A stretch of 64,000 bases of DNA from Candidatus Saccharimonadia bacterium (GTDB taxonomy: Bacteria; Patescibacteriota; Saccharimonadia; Saccharimonadales; 2-12-FULL-41-12): NCBI GenBank assembly GCA_963717365.1, contig OY970327.1:863752-927751 (forward strand). The letters are read 5' to 3'. The position numbers and the translations under genes were made by a program. The stretch's first letter is position 1. Each line of letters starts with the position of its first letter. Below the pieces are notes generated by a model. That model was not told the DNA's origin, made no database searches, and was given only the letters and a program-made list of their open reading frames with translations. Below are positions 4,855-51,276 of the stretch, in pieces.

Positions 4855-7524
4855 TTACAGTTCGCCCCAATTCTTACCCAACGATGTATCTACCGTTAGT
4901 TTAACCGGCAGCTTGTGCACCTGTTCCATGATTTCTTTAATGTCAGCCGCGACAGCTTTTGCCTGGTCATCAGGACACTCTATTAGAATGGAGTCATGGA
5001 CCTGCAGCAGCATATGACACTCTTTGCGGTCGCTCAGATAGTTTTGAACTTTTATCATGGCCAGTTTTATAAGATCAGCGCCGGTGCCCTGGATTGGCAT
5101 GTTGATAGCGGCGCGCTCGGCGCCCTGGCGTACCATGAAGTTGCTGGAATGAATATCGGGCATCGGCCTTCTGCGGCCGAACAGTGTTTCTACGTACCCC
5201 TGCTCGCGAGCAACGACCTTGAGATTGTTCATATATTCAAAGATTGGTTTACGAAGTTCAAAATACTTATCGATGAATTGCTTGGCGGCCACAAAACTCA
5301 TGCCAGTGGCAATACCAAGACCATGCGGGCTCATGCCGTATAGTACACCAAAGTTGATTACTTTAGCGTCGCGGCGCATCTGTTTAGTGACGTCTTCCGG
5401 CTCACGGCCATACACTTGGGCAGCAGTGGCCGTGTGGACGTCGACGTCGCGGTTGAACATATCAATCAGCTCTTCATCTTTGGCCAAAACTGACGCCAAA
5501 CGCAGCTCAATTTGGCTGTAGTCGGCGCTAACAAAACTAAAGCCAGGCTTTGCGACAAACGCAGTGCGGATATGATTACCAAGCTCGGTGCGGACAGGGA
5601 TATTCTGCAAATTAGGGTCAATTGAACTCAGCCGGCCAGTTTGGGCGGTCGTCATATTATAAGTAGTGTGAATGCGCCCTTCCTCGTCAACTTGGGTTGG
5701 CAGCGTTTCCACGTAGGTGCTCATCAGTTTGGTAACTTCGCGGTACTGAGTAATGAGTTCAATAATCGGGTGCTCAGCGCGCAGCTTGTCGAGTTCCGCC
5801 GCGGCCGTACTATAGCCCGTTTTACCTTTTTTAACACCTTGGGTTGGCAGTTTTAGTTTCTCAAACAAAATAACGGCTAGCTGGGCGGGGCTGCTGACAT
5901 TAAATTCTTCGTCGGCATGTCCGTAAATCTGTTGCTCGAGGTCACTGATAGTGTCTTTGAGTTGTTCCGAAAAATCGTTCAAGTAATCACTATCGAGTAA
6001 AATCCCGCGGTGCTCCATTTGGGCCAGTACAGAAATGACTGGCCACTCTATGTCTTCGGCTAGTTTTTTGAGCTTTGGAATCGCTTCAAGCGCTTTATCT
6101 TGCTGCTCATATAACGCCCTGATGATCGCCATTATCTCTGGCGTGCGTTCTATAAACTCTTCGGGAGAAATATTTTCCAGTTCGGGACCGGTGTAGTCCA
6201 AATCAGCCTGTGCCAGTTCTGTTAATGTTTGTTCACGGCGCAAGCTATTGAGTAAAAAGCTGCCAACGAGCACGTCATGATGGACAGTACTGAGTTCTGC
6301 TTGAAGTTCAATGGCAACTTTAGCAGTGTTTTTGAGGTTGTAGCCAATCTTTTTAACAGCTTTTTGTTCGAGCAAACTAGCCAGGCCTTTGTAAACTTTT
6401 GTGAGATTGATGGCGTACGCTTGTTTGGAGTCGGGGCTTACTAGCAACCACTGCGGATCACGTCCATGCCTGCCCGCCGCGTAGCTATGAATTATTACTT
6501 CCTTCCATTTAGACGTATCGATTTTGTCAAAATCAGATTGTGTTTCAATTGTAGTGATTTTTGGCAGATTAAGCGCGATACTGGAATCAGTAATCACCGC
6601 GGCCTCGTCTTCAGACATTTGCATAATGTCCGGCAGCTGCCGGACAAGCGTCCGGAATTCAAACTTTTTCAGCAGTTCGTGCACCTTGGTAGGACTCACT
6701 TTGCTGCCGTCAACTTCGTTTAGATCAAGCGTAATAGGAGCGTCGGTCCATATCTGCGCCAATTTTTTACTCAAATACGCTAACTCTCTGCCGTCTTTAA
6801 GTTTTTTATGGGTTGACCCGGAGATCAGTTCGATATTTTCATAAATATTGTCGAGCGAGTCATAGTCTTTTAATAATTGAATAGCACCTTTTTCGCCAAT
6901 ACCTGGCACACCGGGGATATTATCCGAACTATCCCCTTTTAGGGCTTTTAGATCCAGGAATTGCTCAGGGGTAATTTCATACTTTGCAAAGAAGCTATCC
7001 GGCTCAAACATCTCTATGTTACTCAAACCTTTTTTGAGCGCATAGACATGAGTCATCGGGCCAACGCATTGCAACATATCCAGGTCAGACGTGATCATCA
7101 TGGTTTCAATACCCTGCGCATCAGCCTGTTTAGCAAAAGTCCCCATAATGTCGTCAGCTTCATAATCGTCAAGTTCATACAGCGGCCAGCCAAAGGCTTG
7201 CAAAAGCTCATGTAGCAGCGGGATCTGGACATAAAAATCAGGCGGTGGCGGTTTTCGGTTTGCTTTGTACTGTGGATATATCTCGAGTCGTTTACGAATG
7301 TTAGTTTTTGGCTTGTCCCAGGCAACACAGACATAATCCGGTTTAAGCCGGCGGATAACTTCTAGGGCCATAACGGCGAATCCATAGACGCCGCCGGTAG
7401 GCGTACCATCTTTAGTACTCAGATTTGGCATGGCGTAGTAACCACGGTAAAAAACACTTTTCCCGTCAATAATTGCCAGTTTTTTTGGAGTTTCTTTGGC
7501 TGATTTATGCTTCATCTCTGCCAT
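4855..7524 (-). CDS. polA: DNA polymerase I
   Basis: 889 aa; 5'-nuclease domain (DNIPGVPGIGEKGA), family A motifs DYSQIELR, RRDAKVINFGVLYG, LQVHDS. Confidence 0.95.
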   Translation of the reverse strand: MAEMKHKSAKETPKKLAIIDGKSVFYRGYYAMPNLSTKDGTPTGGVYGFAVMALEVIRRLKPDYVCVAWDKPKTNIRKRLEIYPQYKANRKPPPPDFYVQIPLLHELLQAFGWPLYELDDYEADDIMGTFAKQADAQGIETMMITSDLDMLQCVGPMTHVYALKKGLSNIEMFEPDSFFAKYEITPEQFLDLKALKGDSSDNIPGVPGIGEKGAIQLLKDYDSLDNIYENIELISGSTHKKLKDGRELAYLSKKLAQIWTDAPITLDLNEVDGSKVSPTKVHELLKKFEFRTLVRQLPDIMQMSEDEAAVITDSSIALNLPKITTIETQSDFDKIDTSKWKEVIIHSYAAGRHGRDPQWLLVSPDSKQAYAINLTKVYKGLASLLEQKAVKKIGYNLKNTAKVAIELQAELSTVHHDVLVGSFLLNSLRREQTLTELAQADLDYTGPELENISPEEFIERTPEIMAIIRALYEQQDKALEAIPKLKKLAEDIEWPVISVLAQMEHRGILLDSDYLNDFSEQLKDTISDLEQQIYGHADEEFNVSSPAQLAVILFEKLKLPTQGVKKGKTGYSTAAAELDKLRAEHPIIELITQYREVTKLMSTYVETLPTQVDEEGRIHTTYNMTTAQTGRLSSIDPNLQNIPVRTELGNHIRTAFVAKPGFSFVSADYSQIELRLASVLAKDEELIDMFNRDVDVHTATAAQVYGREPEDVTKQMRRDAKVINFGVLYGMSPHGLGIATGMSFVAAKQFIDKYFELRKPIFEYMNNLKVVAREQGYVETLFGRRRPMPDIHSSNFMVRQGAERAAINMPIQGTGADLIKLAMIKVQNYLSDRKECHMLLQVHDSILIECPDDQAKAVAADIKEIMEQVHKLPVKLTVDTSLGKNWGEL

Positions 7525-7977
7525 ACTTTACAGTATACGATAGATGTGGAGTTTTCTCTCGTTATGCTTAGAGTCTGACAAAATTCCTCTAATGGCCCCT
7601 AGGCAGCGCGGAGTTCAACTTGCGGAAATCGCGCCTGAAAGTGCGGGCTCTGGACAAGTACCTGCAAACACATTTTACCAGGACGAATTGCTCCAGTGTT
7701 CAATGCTGTGTCTACTTCTTGCGAAGCTAGACTTTGGTTTAGCTCATTAGTTGCCATAACCGTCTGTCCGGCTGAACCGTTTGGGCAGCAGCAACCTGGG
7801 GCATAAAGCGAAGTGTCTCGCGGCTAAACTGCGTATATACGCGGTGGCGTTCGACTTTATCTTTGGTTGGTTTATTTATTCTAGGCATAAGTTCTTGTCT
7901 ACAAGGTAACAGACAATTGTCCGGGTGGCAATAAAGTGTTAATTTAATACAACGATTAATGCAGTAAGATTTGTAAA

Positions 7978-30922: not shown

Positions 30923-31936
30923 CTATCGGCGCTGTCTTTTAATTTCGTTGACATGCTCAATAATCGCTTTTAAAGATACGCCATTATTCATATTCGAGAT
31001 TCGTTCAGCGTAATCCGGCCGATCATAACTGGCCAGCACCGGCACATCGGGATGATGCGCCAGCTGCTTAAACTCATTGCGCAGCCTTAGGGCATCTTTG
31101 TCAACTTCTGGAAAACGGCGGCTTAAGAACCAGGCGCCTAGTCTTTGTGTACTATTTACTGATTGTCCAGACAAACGATCATCCCGGTCGTCAACTCCCC
31201 GGCCTGTCGGATCTTTCGCTTTATACCAAACTGGCAAATCTATGTTCGTTTGCGAACCATCTGACCTTCTATGTATGCCCTTCATCCAGTACTCGCTGGC
31301 AATTTGCGAAGTTGGAAAGGCTTTTTCGAAAAACCGCTGCGCGATCTGTAGGGTACGCCCGGATGTATAAACCTCGTCAATAATGAGTATAGTTTTGTTA
31401 TCAAGCGACGATTCCACGGTGTCAATTTCTTCGGTTAAGCCATTTTCTTTTTCAGTAGGCTTAACAAATATGGATCGTAAGCTGCGCACGATACTGGTAT
31501 CTACTTCATCAATATCCATATAACCGGTACCGCCCGGGTCTACCTTGTTAACCCACTGCTCCCGGTCAATATTTACAAATTTAAAGTCGGGCTTTTTGGC
31601 TACTTCACCCGTGCTAGGATCGGCGGCCATTTGCGGCCATAATTCTTTGGTAAGCCATGCCAGCGGACGAGCGGACTTATCAAGCCAAACAACAACATCG
31701 GGAATCTTTTTCTCCTTCTCACCGGTTTCTTTACTTTCTACTTCCACACCATGGGTCATCAAATAGATGAGGTTGTCGGTACGCTGGATGTATTCCATGC
31801 GCAATTGCTGGTCTGTCTTGTATTTTCCGTCCGCACGGTTATGACCAATTAATAATTCATATTCAAAATTATCCGCTGGCACCTGCGGTTCATCTGCTTC
31901 TGGAGCGGGAAATGGGTGAGGTTTTCGTTCTAGCAT
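30923..31936 (-). CDS. phosphoribosyltransferase-domain protein
   Basis: Type I PRT PRPP-binding motif NKTILIIDEVYTSGRTL; the rest is not recognised. Confidence 0.6.
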   Translation of the reverse strand: MLERKPHPFPAPEADEPQVPADNFEYELLIGHNRADGKYKTDQQLRMEYIQRTDNLIYLMTHGVEVESKETGEKEKKIPDVVVWLDKSARPLAWLTKELWPQMAADPSTGEVAKKPDFKFVNIDREQWVNKVDPGGTGYMDIDEVDTSIVRSLRSIFVKPTEKENGLTEEIDTVESSLDNKTILIIDEVYTSGRTLQIAQRFFEKAFPTSQIASEYWMKGIHRRSDGSQTNIDLPVWYKAKDPTGRGVDDRDDRLSGQSVNSTQRLGAWFLSRRFPEVDKDALRLRNEFKQLAHHPDVPVLASYDRPDYAERISNMNNGVSLKAIIEHVNEIKRQRR

Positions 31937-32393
31937 ATTTTAGTTTGATTACTGCTGTTTATTATAGCAAATTATTGCTTTGTTGTCAATATAAATGATT
32001 TGTTAAAATTTTATATTATGAAACAATATCTGCCTAACAATTTACCTTAAAAAGGCGACATTTGGTAATTATTGCGTCAACTAAATTTCTGGCTCAGCTG
32101 TATTCACTTAAAATATATGCATTCAGTGAATCCTCCCCACCTTTTTGGTCTTGACGTTAAAAGCATTTAGTTATATACAAATACTGATCCTTTGTCGAGT
32201 TTTTAAATTACTCCATCGGATTGTACATTGACAAGTCAGACAAAGCGCATGAGGCGAGCAAGGTGGTATCAATAGAGGTGGTATTATCTTGCTCCCCTCA
32301 TGCCAGGAAGAGAACCTATACAAAACTCAAGCAAGGGCTGACATACCGTCAGGCAGTACTCAGGCACACCTACAAAACCCAGGAAAGGCCGCA

Positions 32394-33161
32394 ATGGACG
32401 AACCAACCCGGACACGTGAGCGCCAGGAGCGTCATCTGAAAACCGATCATCCGCGGACACTGGAAGAACTGGCCTCTATCGCCAACCGTGAGCATTCGCT
32501 TGCGGAGCTGGCTGCACAGACCGTATTGCAACATGCCATCGCCGCAGGCGAAGCACTGATCGCAGCACGGGAGATCGTACCCCCCGGGGAATGGTCCCGC
32601 TGGCTAGACCAGAACTTCCAGGCCACACAGTCGGTTGCCTATGGCTACATCCGTGTCGCTACCCACAAGGAGAACATCCCGGAAGGGACAACCGGTGTCA
32701 AGCCTGCTCTTGCAGTTCTGAGCGGGTACCCGCAGGCCCGTGGACCGTTCATGGTGGAACGCGAACAGCCTGAAAAGCGCGCGGAAGCAATTCGCATGCA
32801 CAACGAGAGCGATTTGTCTTCCCAGGAAATCGCCCGCCGGCTGAATGAAAGACCAGGCACGGTGTGGCGATGGCTCAACCCCGCAGCCGCGGCAAGGAAG
32901 CAACGCGCATCCGAAACCAAGCGGCGCAAGGCTGCCAAGGCACTCCGCGAGCAGGAACGTGAGCGCGAGATCAAACGGGCTGTCCGCAAAGCTGGCGCGG
33001 CACTAGCCGAGGCATACTCGATGGCGGAGCGTATGGGCGCCGTACTTGACCAGGCGGTCAACGAGGCAGCCGACGAGGAAGCGCATGAGGCACTGACCGA
33101 GGCCATCCGGTACCGCAACAAGATGCGCGACCAGATTGTGCGAGCGCTTGGGGTGTCATGA
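32394..33161 (+). CDS. DUF3102-like protein with C-terminal HTH (phage/plasmid-type)
   Basis: Trimmed to the ATG after aggaaagg. ...AIAAGEALIAAREIVPPGEWSRWLDQNFQATQSVAYGYIRVA... matches the DUF3102 pattern; LSSQEIARRLNERPGTVWRWLN is HTH-like; GC-rich codons. Confidence 0.65.
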   Translation: MDEPTRTRERQERHLKTDHPRTLEELASIANREHSLAELAAQTVLQHAIAAGEALIAAREIVPPGEWSRWLDQNFQATQSVAYGYIRVATHKENIPEGTTGVKPALAVLSGYPQARGPFMVEREQPEKRAEAIRMHNESDLSSQEIARRLNERPGTVWRWLNPAAAARKQRASETKRRKAAKALREQEREREIKRAVRKAGAALAEAYSMAERMGAVLDQAVNEAADEEAHEALTEAIRYRNKMRDQIVRALGVS

Positions 33162-33181
33162 CGACATCTCTATGAATCGAG

Positions 33182-33246
33182 GCGTCGTGGACGCGGTGGC
33201 TCATGCGAGCATACCGCGTCCACGACGCAATTCCTTTTTCCTTTTT
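33182..33246 (+). terminator. GC-rich rho-independent terminator of the cassette ORF
   Basis: Perfect 16-bp stem GCGTCGTGGACGCGGT (33182-97) / ACCGCGTCCACGACGC (33213-28) followed by ttcctttttcctttttg. Confidence 0.75.
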
Positions 33247-33354
33247 GTCTGACTTGTCATAACTTACTTTTATAGATGTGTATCTATACTGACGAGTCCA
33301 AGAGGACGAAAAGTAACCAATTAATCCTTACTCAGATATCTTCGCCAGAAAAAG

Positions 33355-34635
33355 CTAATGCTTTAACAATTCCCTGGCTACTTCTCTCTCGTCCCAAGGC
33401 TCCTTGTGGCCGCCCATATTACGGTAGTCCTGATGACCGATACCGGTTAGTAGGACAGTATCACCTGGTTTGGCGGCTTTAAAGGCTTGCTGAATGGCTT
33501 TTCGCCGGTCATCAACTAATACTGTCCTAGATTGAGCGTGAGCGGCTGTTATGCCCTCGTAGACCTGCTGGCGGATAGCCTGCGGGTCTTCGGTATACGT
33601 TTCGTCGTCTGTTAAGAAAATATGATCGGCTAGTTCGGCGGCAATTTTGCCCATTGGTGCCCGTTTGGTCTTGTCACGGTCACCGGTGGCACCAAAAACC
33701 ACAATTACCTTCCCTTTGGTGAGTTCCTTGAGCGCGGTTAAGACATTTTCAAGCGCATCAGGAGTGATGGCGTAATCAACGATAACGCTAAATTTCTGGC
33801 CGGCATCTATTTGTTCCATGCGGCCAGGTACCGATTCCAGACTGGCGATCCCCCGGCTAATAACGTCTTTTTCCAAACCAGCGGCTAAACCAACTCCGTA
33901 AGCTGCTAGGGCGTTATAGGCGTTGAACTTACCAATAAGTTTTGAGGTAAACGTAATGTGATCATCGTTGTATAGGGCTGTTATGGCTGAGCCGCTGGCC
34001 GACAAGGCGCACGTTTTCAGTCTCAAGTCTGCTTCCGATTGTTCGCCGTAACTGATTATTTTTCCTGCAGCGCGAGTTTTAAAGTAGTTAAACCATTCAT
34101 CATCGGCATTTAAAACGCACCATTTGGCTTTGTATTGCGGGCCGAATAACCGGGCTTTGGCGGCCGCATACCGTTCCATAGTACGGTGATAATCGAGGTG
34201 CTCCTGCGTCAGGTTGGTCATCACGGCAATCTCGACGGGAATTCCATAACCACGACCCTGATCAAGCGCGTGACTGGTGATTTCCAAAATTATCCAATCA
34301 ACCGCAGCGGCGCGGGCATAAGCCAAAAACCGTTGAACATCAGCTTCGCTGCTCACCGTCATGTGAGTTTTATTCGGGAAGCGTTTGCCGGCAATTTCAA
34401 TATAAGCAGTGGTGTAAACGGCAGTTTTGAGGCCGCCTGACCGCAGCATAGCGTTCACGTAGCTGGCAGTGGTAGTTTTGCCGTTGGTGCCGGTGATGGC
34501 AATAACACGAGCACCACGGGCTGGAAACCCGTAACGGGCTTGCCAGAACATTCCCCTGCCCTTCCGGAACGCTGTTTCGGCAACGCGCAGAGCTGGACCG
34601 CGTACAGTTTTACGGATCAGCGCTTTTGGTTTCAT
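33355..34635 (-). CDS. Mur ligase family protein (MurE-like, short N-terminus)
   Basis: VIAITGTNGKTTTASYV ATP-binding motif, central and C-terminal Mur ligase domains, FLTDDETYTEDPQAI resembles the MurE C-terminal motif. Confidence 0.8.
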   Translation of the reverse strand: MKPKALIRKTVRGPALRVAETAFRKGRGMFWQARYGFPARGARVIAITGTNGKTTTASYVNAMLRSGGLKTAVYTTAYIEIAGKRFPNKTHMTVSSEADVQRFLAYARAAAVDWIILEITSHALDQGRGYGIPVEIAVMTNLTQEHLDYHRTMERYAAAKARLFGPQYKAKWCVLNADDEWFNYFKTRAAGKIISYGEQSEADLRLKTCALSASGSAITALYNDDHITFTSKLIGKFNAYNALAAYGVGLAAGLEKDVISRGIASLESVPGRMEQIDAGQKFSVIVDYAITPDALENVLTALKELTKGKVIVVFGATGDRDKTKRAPMGKIAAELADHIFLTDDETYTEDPQAIRQQVYEGITAAHAQSRTVLVDDRRKAIQQAFKAAKPGDTVLLTGIGHQDYRNMGGHKEPWDEREVARELLKH

Positions 34636-51137: not shown

Positions 51138-51276
51138 CGGTTTAGTCCTCACTTATATTTGTTATCACTCACTACTTTACGCATCTTGTGCTTATCAGAC
51201 TGTAAGAAAAGTTACGTGCTAATGTTTATGTCAGTTTTATAGCGAGAGACAACTCCAATGTGCGATAATTACACCG

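Follow-up and report, generated by a model that had tools for sequence, protein, structure and literature searches.

Are the two arms of an exact inverted repeat around a single phage-type gene the ends of a small transposon, or do they belong to something else? The question is raised by a G+C-rich cassette in Candidatus Saccharimonadia bacterium, which sits between the gene for a 337-aa phosphoribosyltransferase-like (PRT-like) protein and murE, with GroES/GroEL and TsaD genes further out. It lies in a 64,000-nt stretch of DNA (GenBank assembly GCA_963717365.1, contig OY970327.1, positions 863,752 to 927,751 of the forward strand), which was analysed as a whole and is called the window below. 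An earlier note, made from the sequence alone, had read the cassette as a recently acquired, non-autonomous mobile element with 16-bp terminal inverted repeats (TIRs), either similar to a miniature inverted-repeat transposable element (MITE) or a phage or plasmid remnant. We suggest, with somewhat better than even confidence, that it is a horizontally acquired, phage-derived unit of one gene whose transcript is cut in cis by a hammerhead ribozyme, and that it is not a MITE. Comparison with related genomes and proteins establishes both the insertion and the phage ancestry of the gene; that the RNA is cleaved in vivo is what we infer.

A hammerhead ribozyme beside the right repeat

Immediately beyond the right repeat, and on the same strand as the gene, there is a type III hammerhead ribozyme that had no place in the earlier note (Table 1). 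Its plus-strand RNA reads UUACUU-U / UAUAGAU-GUGU-AUCUAUA / CUGACGA / GUCC-AAGA-GGAC / GAA / AAGUAA. The complete catalytic core, C3-U4-G5-A6-N7-G8-A9 with G12-A13-A14, is present (CUGACGA/GAA), as is the A15.1-U16.1 pair (A33311 with U33269); stems I and II, of 7 and 4 bp respectively, are each closed by a loop of 4 nt, and stem III is open. Hammerhead_3 was the top relevant match when the region was scanned with Rfam.

A second copy of the cassette allows the ribozyme to be judged by comparison. It makes up a contig of 1,030 nt (L015), which is homologous to the cassette from the 5' hairpin to beyond the ribozyme and encodes a protein, P0003, that is 53% identical to that of the window. L015 keeps the right repeat, the hairpins, the gene ends and a ribozyme with an intact core (CUGAUGA/GAA), which scores 17.2 bits against Hammerhead_HH9 (gathering score 52); H17 is a residue other than G in both copies. 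The minimum-energy fold is a three-way junction in the window and in L015 alike. With stem I being CACAGAU/GUCUGUG and stem II GCUG/CAGC in L015, 17/17 pairs form in both copies, five of them compensatory (two in stem I, three in stem II), and pairing drops to 29-56% in a control in which the partners are slid against each other. A ribozyme fold with covariation is thereby demonstrated, as a property of the two sequences, window and L015, on which the covariation rests.

Conservation is not confined to the ribozyme. Ribozyme and right arm together are 82% identical to L015, which has also kept the region of the start codon and, of the 5' hairpin, the 3' arm. Over the last 65 codons the two genes share 83% amino-acid identity, and codon positions 1 and 2 are 90% identical as against 46% for position 3; the gene is therefore, as judged from these codons, under purifying selection, and the synonymous sites of both copies are near saturation. 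At this divergence the non-coding ends are better kept than most of the gene, a pattern of substitution that indicates selection on them too.

The ribozyme stands alone. Scanning 31900-33400 with Rfam at E up to 10 revealed no second ribozyme at the left end, and an unfiltered hammerhead model made from the two sequences found no other true site in the 64-kb window or at 24 other loci. One hammerhead-like match between two tRNA genes (51168-51217, minus strand) was set aside as probably due to chance, being weak (9.8 bits, E=9.9) and having CUGAUAA and GUAA in place of a canonical core.

Proposed pairing of the repeats in the transcript

The inverted repeat itself is real. The sequence TGACAAGTCAGACAAA, its exact reverse complement and the position of the right arm were given correctly in the earlier note, but the left arm, placed there at 32239-54, lies 10 nt further to the left, at 32229-32244; the two arms are separated by 999 nt, and the segment that they bound measures 1,031 bp. 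Among 300 dinucleotide-shuffled versions of 31900-33400, none had an exact inverted repeat longer than 14 nt, a length reached once, so that the observed 16 nt cannot be put down to chance.

The right arm is complementary to two partners, the left arm (16/16) and the core of the ribozyme; the left arm is itself similar to the core (TGACaAGTC-aGACaAA vs TGACgAGTC[loop]GACgAA). For right arm and ribozyme a duplex of -17.7 kcal/mol is predicted, against -8.3 +/- 2.2 kcal/mol for shuffled sequences (p=0.0005). In predicted folds, a right arm that is not paired with the left arm captures the core (-23.7 vs -10.6 kcal/mol) and the pair probability of the ribozyme is 0, and once the right arm is removed this probability exceeds 0.9. 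When the RNA 32229-33320 is folded as a whole, the arms pair and the ribozyme takes its active shape. The hairpin next to the left arm is likewise better suited to RNA of the plus strand: on the minus strand it reaches merely -27.3 kcal/mol with 15 pairs, about 9 kcal/mol less than on the plus strand, and this bias, together with its G-U pairs, points to a function in plus-strand RNA.

Based on these observations, we propose the following scheme. From 5' to 3', the transcript would carry an AT-rich leader with the left arm and the hairpin, the G+C-rich gene, a second hairpin, the right arm and, 4 nt later, the ribozyme. Transcripts that read through the second hairpin would be cut in cis after U33270, and the cut would both fix the 3' end of the mRNA of the gene and separate this mRNA from RNA running antisense into murE; we give even chances to such a role of the ribozyme in 3'-end processing. 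The repeats would act in the RNA and not as transposon ends: the right arm, by pairing with the left arm, would close the mRNA into a panhandle and leave the ribozyme free to fold, or alternatively, by pairing with the ribozyme core, would block it. A pairing switch of this kind, between the left arm and the ribozyme core, is a possibility that we put forward tentatively. If the arms do pair in RNA, the left arm of L015 would be predicted to read TGACAAACCAGACAAA.

One may speculate further that the cassette encodes a hammerhead gated over a long range, in which the right arm masks the core unless it is captured by its complement 1 kb upstream. Leader-containing RNAs alone would then self-cleave and yield an mRNA whose two ends are held together by a panhandle of 16 bp. 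The leader, the first ~22 and the last ~65 codons, the hairpin, the repeat and the ribozyme would form a non-coding frame that serves as a portable vehicle, with a central coding part that is swapped with phage alleles by recombination. We consider this extended version unlikely. Most known bacterial hammerheads lie in complex prophage regions; the present case is minimal, having a single gene, a single ribozyme, a defined insertion whose empty sites are known, and a simple pairing scheme (left arm, right arm and ribozyme core). Should this scheme hold, the cassette would offer a natural example of a ribozyme that is controlled through long-range pairing inside an mRNA.

Several observations weigh against the scheme or parts of it. 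With 22.0 bits, the match to Hammerhead_3 falls short of the gathering score of 48.5 (E=0.1 when all 4,227 families are counted), and both the stems and the loops of the ribozyme are short. In L015, the arm and the core paired in the same register do no better than shuffled sequences (-8.8 kcal/mol, p=0.43), which is why we treat the pairing switch as hypothetical. Two copies of the cassette are known, and L015 lacks the left end, which puts covariation between the arms beyond reach. Plus-strand promoters in the insertion amount to weak promoter-like sites alone, and a candidate extended -10 element at 32279-87, downstream of the left arm, would drop that arm from the RNA. The terminator-like hairpin with its U run, which is kept in L015, stands upstream of the right arm and the ribozyme, and given this hairpin many transcripts may never reach them. 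Finally, the scheme has no explanation for the route by which the DNA was inserted.

The alternative that survives best is that the repeats act in DNA, either as two sites for a DNA-binding protein, from the cassette itself (its helix-turn-helix (HTH) protein) or from the host, that loops the unit or represses it, or as the halves of an older 32-bp palindrome beside the ribozyme that was split by insertion of the gene. The product of the gene is an HTH DNA-binding protein, and the joined arms form a perfect palindrome. On L014, the contig that encodes the closest homologue, a motif of 12-14 nt, GGTACACGGCGG, is found upstream and downstream of the gene (29-42, 1147-1158 and 1247-1260), one copy being inverted, at a distance of 1,204 nt; an operator, a phage repeat or chance in G+C-rich DNA may account for this motif. 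Yet flanking inverted repeats are not a consistent feature of the phage-type loci, a role in RNA is suggested by the G-U-rich 5' hairpin next to the left arm, and the match of the right arm to the ribozyme core is left without explanation. Moreover, the right arm is kept in 14/16 positions in L015 though the HTH segments of the two proteins are 32% identical, which argues against the repeat as an operator of the cassette's own protein. We thus regard action in DNA as improbable and pairing in RNA as the better guide to the repeats.

A further resemblance was seen around the stop codon. This region reads UGACGA in the window (33159-33164) and UGAUGA in L015 (875-880), and in each element its variable base matches N7 of the element's own ribozyme core (window 33290-33295; L015 990-995). 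The 3' half of the right repeat is a possible pairing partner of this region; two sequences are involved, and this may be coincidence.

Origin and selection of the gene

The gene was well described in the earlier note: there is a single open reading frame (ORF) between the repeats, it has its own Shine-Dalgarno sequence (AGGAAAGG, 6 nt before the ATG), and it runs on the plus strand against both neighbour genes, which are on the minus strand. The perfect 16-bp G+C-rich stem behind it (33182-33197 / 33213-33228) was also found as described; a U-rich run follows it, and L015 has at the same place after the stop codon a hairpin of other sequence with a U run. In the public record the ORF is given as 290 aa from a TTG at 32289 (P0047, 32289-33161). 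The deposited start is probably 35 codons too early, the ATG at 32394 being backed by the alignment of the family and by an independent gene call.

The product matches Pfam DUF3102 (PF11300) over residues 29-153 with 32.8 bits (cut-off 24.4) and the Sigma70_r4_2 HTH with 28.1 bits (cut-off 25.7). Its AlphaFold2 model (pLDDT 88.7) is all-helical, and the best fold matches of the model are DUF3102 proteins of tailed phages; in the PDB the HTH part alone found matches, all with E > 0.3, and no catalytic fold was matched. The label 'transposase', attached to relatives by JGI, was considered and rejected. Transposase models find the HTH part alone, with scores a long way under the cut-offs (IS3, 19.5 bits vs 160; IS630, 17.2 bits vs 100), and profile and model comparison found no catalytic domain of the DDE, HUH, serine recombinase or tyrosine recombinase type in the protein; for this protein family the label is unfounded. 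The segment, as the earlier note had stated, holds neither a transposase nor an integrase.

Relatives of the protein form 708 clusters when the limit is set at E<=1e-30 and 8,752 when it is E<=1e-10, far more than the 44 matches of a word-indexed search would suggest, but records of isolated phages and plasmids contain no DNA or protein match to the cassette or its family. Those that are 45-48% identical sit in long same-strand arrays of small genes, among them HNH, RNA ligase, DnaB, SNF2, DUF5131 and lysozyme genes, and all relatives with a readable context except L015 lie in such phage-like arrays, on contigs of 63-69% G+C. In one array the best matches of a neighbour gene are from Gordonia and Mycobacterium phages. 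No ribozyme was found beside the phage-type relatives. The compositional anomaly noted before is equally clear: the ORF has 61.7% G+C against 46.3% for the window, the highest value of all 768-nt windows (z=5.0), and is also the top tetranucleotide outlier, in surroundings of ~29-30% (left intergenic DNA), 51% (murE) and 46% (the other neighbour). A high-G+C donor, as suggested earlier, fits the G+C content of the arrays and the Gordonia and Mycobacterium phage matches, and the cassette is a record of genes passing from phages of high-G+C hosts to a lineage of epibionts.

The protein (P0001) is a mosaic when it is aligned with its family. Residues 22-190 are closest to P0002, the closest homologue, encoded on contig L014 of 67.5% G+C, with identities by segment of 77/56/60/56% as against 47/25/32/44% for P0003. 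In contrast, the last 65 residues are closest to P0003, the L015 protein (83% vs 68%), and among 184 family members P0003 alone shares the C-terminus of the cassette type (83%, against 70% or less for the others). Because the identities differ in this way from segment to segment, the ends of the gene would seem to travel with the non-coding frame, and the middle to be exchanged with other alleles.

The same evidence bears on the view that the cassette is a decaying phage remnant, a moron-like gene in which the hammerhead-like motif and the repeats are fossils with no present function. A single copy with no mobility genes would fit a remnant, as would a ribozyme under the Rfam threshold that comes after a terminator-like hairpin, and the role of most bacterial hammerheads is obscure in any case (in a 2019 review, PMC6765202, the roles of genomically encoded bacterial hammerheads are described as still largely elusive). 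Decay is nonetheless hard to reconcile with an ORF that is intact, of a length typical of its family and under purifying selection, with a ribozyme that has kept every core residue and acquired five compensatory pairs at near-saturated divergence, or with non-coding ends better kept than most of the gene. We therefore find a functionless remnant distinctly improbable and favour a unit that is maintained by selection.

Ends of the insertion

Exact-sequence look-ups of the neighbour genes returned the source genome and one fragmented Logan assembly and nothing else, and empty sites were therefore taken from diverged relatives. In L026, whose MurE is 87% identical, the orthologue of the PRT-like gene begins 34 nt after murE; in L027 (MurE 79% identical) the order is TsaD-hypothetical protein-MurE-(202-aa ORF)-PRT-like-GroES-GroEL. 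The gap from murE to its next gene does not exceed 34 nt in either relative. Homology to these relatives on the murE side ends at ...GTTAAAGCATT (33357) and picks up at ATTGACAACAAAGC...TATAAT (31990 downwards), so that ~1,366 bp (31991-33356) are extra in the window. The earlier note had envisaged empty sites in which the flanks of the repeats are directly joined. Empty sites do exist in two related contigs, but the ends that they define, at about 31991 and 33356, lie 238 nt beyond the left arm and 97 nt beyond the right arm, and not at the repeats. Absence of the segment from the same site in two relatives and its foreign composition both support the recent horizontal acquisition that had been proposed. 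No clear target-site duplication had been visible to the earlier note, and there is none at the repeats; the true junctions share AAT alone, three AT-rich bases that are not significant on their own.

The DNA entered at the upstream edge of the promoter of the PRT-like gene. In L026 (1960-2036) and L027 (7260-7322) the same promoter overlaps the final codons of murE; the insertion left the promoter intact, split this overlap (31961-31990 and 33355-33372 in the window) and gave MurE a new tail (...ELLKH*), the last two bases of the current murE stop codon TAG (A33356 and G33355 on the minus strand) being supplied by the right tail of the insertion. The AT-rich left arm of the insertion (31991-32228) contains no ORF and no Rfam match, and its fold is no better than that of shuffles (z=+0.5). 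At the same junction L027 has its 202-aa ORF (7321-7929; 44% G+C, no Pfam match), and the murE / PRT-like junction is thus variable in at least two lineages.

These ends bear directly on the reading as a MITE-like, non-autonomous DNA transposon, bounded by 16-bp TIRs and moved in trans by a transposase encoded elsewhere. It draws on an exact 16-nt repeat beyond chance, on DNA that is foreign and not found in relatives, on a second copy elsewhere (L015) and on the breaks near the left arm or hairpin that are seen in both short-read assemblies. However, the empty sites put the ends of the insertion outside the repeats, which are internal to a segment that extends 238 nt further on the left and 97 nt on the right; the ribozyme lies outside the repeats too, and the homology to L015 runs past the right arm and through the ribozyme. 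The flanks of the repeats, ...GTACAT and TAACTT..., share no repeat of the kind that target duplication would leave. Nor did the searches for relatives speak for a transposon. Neither the 16-nt repeat nor any other portion of the inserted segment recurs within the 64-kb window. DNA pattern scans of viral contigs (right arm with ribozyme start, left hairpin, ribozyme body) gave 0 matches, and a 22-mer across the right repeat gave a single match in 596 Gb of genome contigs (L017, 7475-7496, minus strand, in a metagenome-assembled genome of Planctomycetota), which has no ribozyme after it and of which ~1 is expected by chance. A protein search of metagenome and viral data yielded 4 loci, 0 of them with a ribozyme; the DNA pattern scans turned up no related element with a transposase, and no relative of the gene is linked to one. 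The TIR-bounded element of the earlier note is thus not borne out, and we judge it very improbable.

The breaks in the assemblies are a side observation. The Logan assembly of ERR12037361 has a contig that stops at ~32250, the next one beginning at ~32252, and the L015 contig starts in the loop of the equivalent 5' hairpin; two independent short-read assemblies hence break at the left hairpin or left-arm region, for which we offer no explanation. An inversion switch between the arms was rejected, since the Logan contig passes through the right arm and on into murE without a break, and an invertase is absent. We also observed that the left repeat with its flanks (32226-32249, cATTGACAAgtcagaCAAAGCg) resembles host DNA at the insertion point, tATTGACAA-CAAAGCa (31975-31990, minus strand), from the -35 region of the promoter of the PRT-like gene. 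The left repeat is on the strand opposite to this host sequence, and the right repeat is oriented in the same way as it.

A DNA copy of a ribozyme-processed circular RNA (retrozyme- or viroid-like and of the size of an Obelisk), excised and circularised, is hardly credible: a size of ~1 kb, a single ORF, the type III hammerhead and the potential of the 5' and 3' regions to pair would suit it, but there is a single ribozyme, neither a second cleavage site nor a direct repeat at the flanks was found, the fold does not form a rod (28% of pairs on one axis, a rod fraction of 0.28), the L015 contig has no end overlap, and hundreds of protein relatives are found in DNA phage-like contigs.

Table 1. 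Coordinates of the features of the cassette and its insertion site, in positions of the window.
Feature	Position	Strand	Basis or remark
Gene for 255-aa all-helical DUF3102 and HTH protein	32394-33161	+	Pfam matches, AlphaFold2 model
Left arm of 16-nt inverted repeat, TGACAAGTCAGACAAA	32229-32244	+	pairs with right arm in full-length RNA fold
Right arm of 16-nt inverted repeat, TTTGTCTGACTTGTCA	33244-33259	+	14/16 identical in L015
Long 5'-leader hairpin, 24 pairs including 4 G-U	32247-32303	+	-36.6 kcal/mol, z=-7.7
Terminator-like perfect 16-bp G+C-rich hairpin, with U-rich run 33233-33246	33182-33228	+	after stop codon
Type III hammerhead ribozyme	33264-33316	+	Rfam match, fold, covariation; 4 nt after right repeat
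Ribozyme stems III and I	stem III 33264-69 / 33311-16; stem I 33271-77 / 33282-88	+	
Ribozyme core CUGACGA, stem II and GAA	core 33289-95; stem II 33296-99 / 33304-07; GAA 33308-10	+	
Predicted self-cleavage site, after H17 = U33270 (C in L015)	33270-33271	+	canonical numbering on alignment
Inserted segment, ~1,366 bp, absent from related genomes	31991-33356		two empty sites
AAT, possible 3-nt target duplication	31988-31990, second copy 33357-33359		junction alignment
Host promoter of PRT-like gene, TTGACA-17-TATAAT with TG	31961-31989	-	12/12 consensus positions
AT-rich left arm of insertion, 30% G+C, 238 nt	31991-32228	+	composition; weak promoter-like sites
Right tail of insertion	33317-33356	+	partial L015 similarity ~20 nt past ribozyme

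Comparison with known systems

A phage moron is a self-contained unit of promoter, gene and terminator with deviant composition. The cassette resembles it in being a single gene with its own ribosome-binding site and terminator-like hairpin, of foreign composition and placed between two genes; it differs in lying in a cellular chromosome and not between prophage genes, in having weak promoter-like sites and in carrying a ribozyme. With MITEs and other TIR transposons it shares its small size, the exact 16-nt inverted repeat and the lack of a transposase, but the repeats are internal, target duplication is missing and the gene is full-length and under selection. Retrozymes, viroid-like RNAs and Obelisks are similar in that they combine ~1 kb with a type III hammerhead, Obelisks also with one ORF. 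Unlike them, the cassette is encoded in DNA and has DNA-phage relatives, a single ribozyme and no sign of a rod fold or a circle.

Set against the type III hammerhead of Rfam (RF00008), the ribozyme has the CUGANGA...GAA core, the A15.1-U16.1 pair, H17 and closed stems I and II, but its 22 bits stay below 48.5, with a short stem I (7 bp) and stem II (4 bp) and 4-nt loops. It is also, as far as we could find, the first hammerhead to be linked to a Saccharibacteria-type genome; a full-text search that combined the two returned 0 papers.

The closest parallel is found in the bacterial hammerheads, numbering in the hundreds, that were described by Perreault et al. 2011 (PMC3088659). Many of these lie near prophage integrases and often flank individual genes or short runs of genes; the flanked genes vary in identity, and the suggested role is the processing of long transcripts into gene-length mRNAs. 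As there, a canonical hammerhead is found here directly beside a phage-type gene in bacterial DNA. Unlike there, there is one ribozyme and no flanking pair, no integrase or prophage surrounds it, and the unit is solitary among housekeeping genes (GroES/GroEL, PRT-like, MurE, TsaD); it also has the option of a long-range 16-nt pairing, which is not described for the prophage hammerheads. By analogy, the cassette would work like the prophage kind in a different setting. It adds a new case, unusual in its layout, to an association of hammerhead ribozymes with phage genes that is known but not explained.

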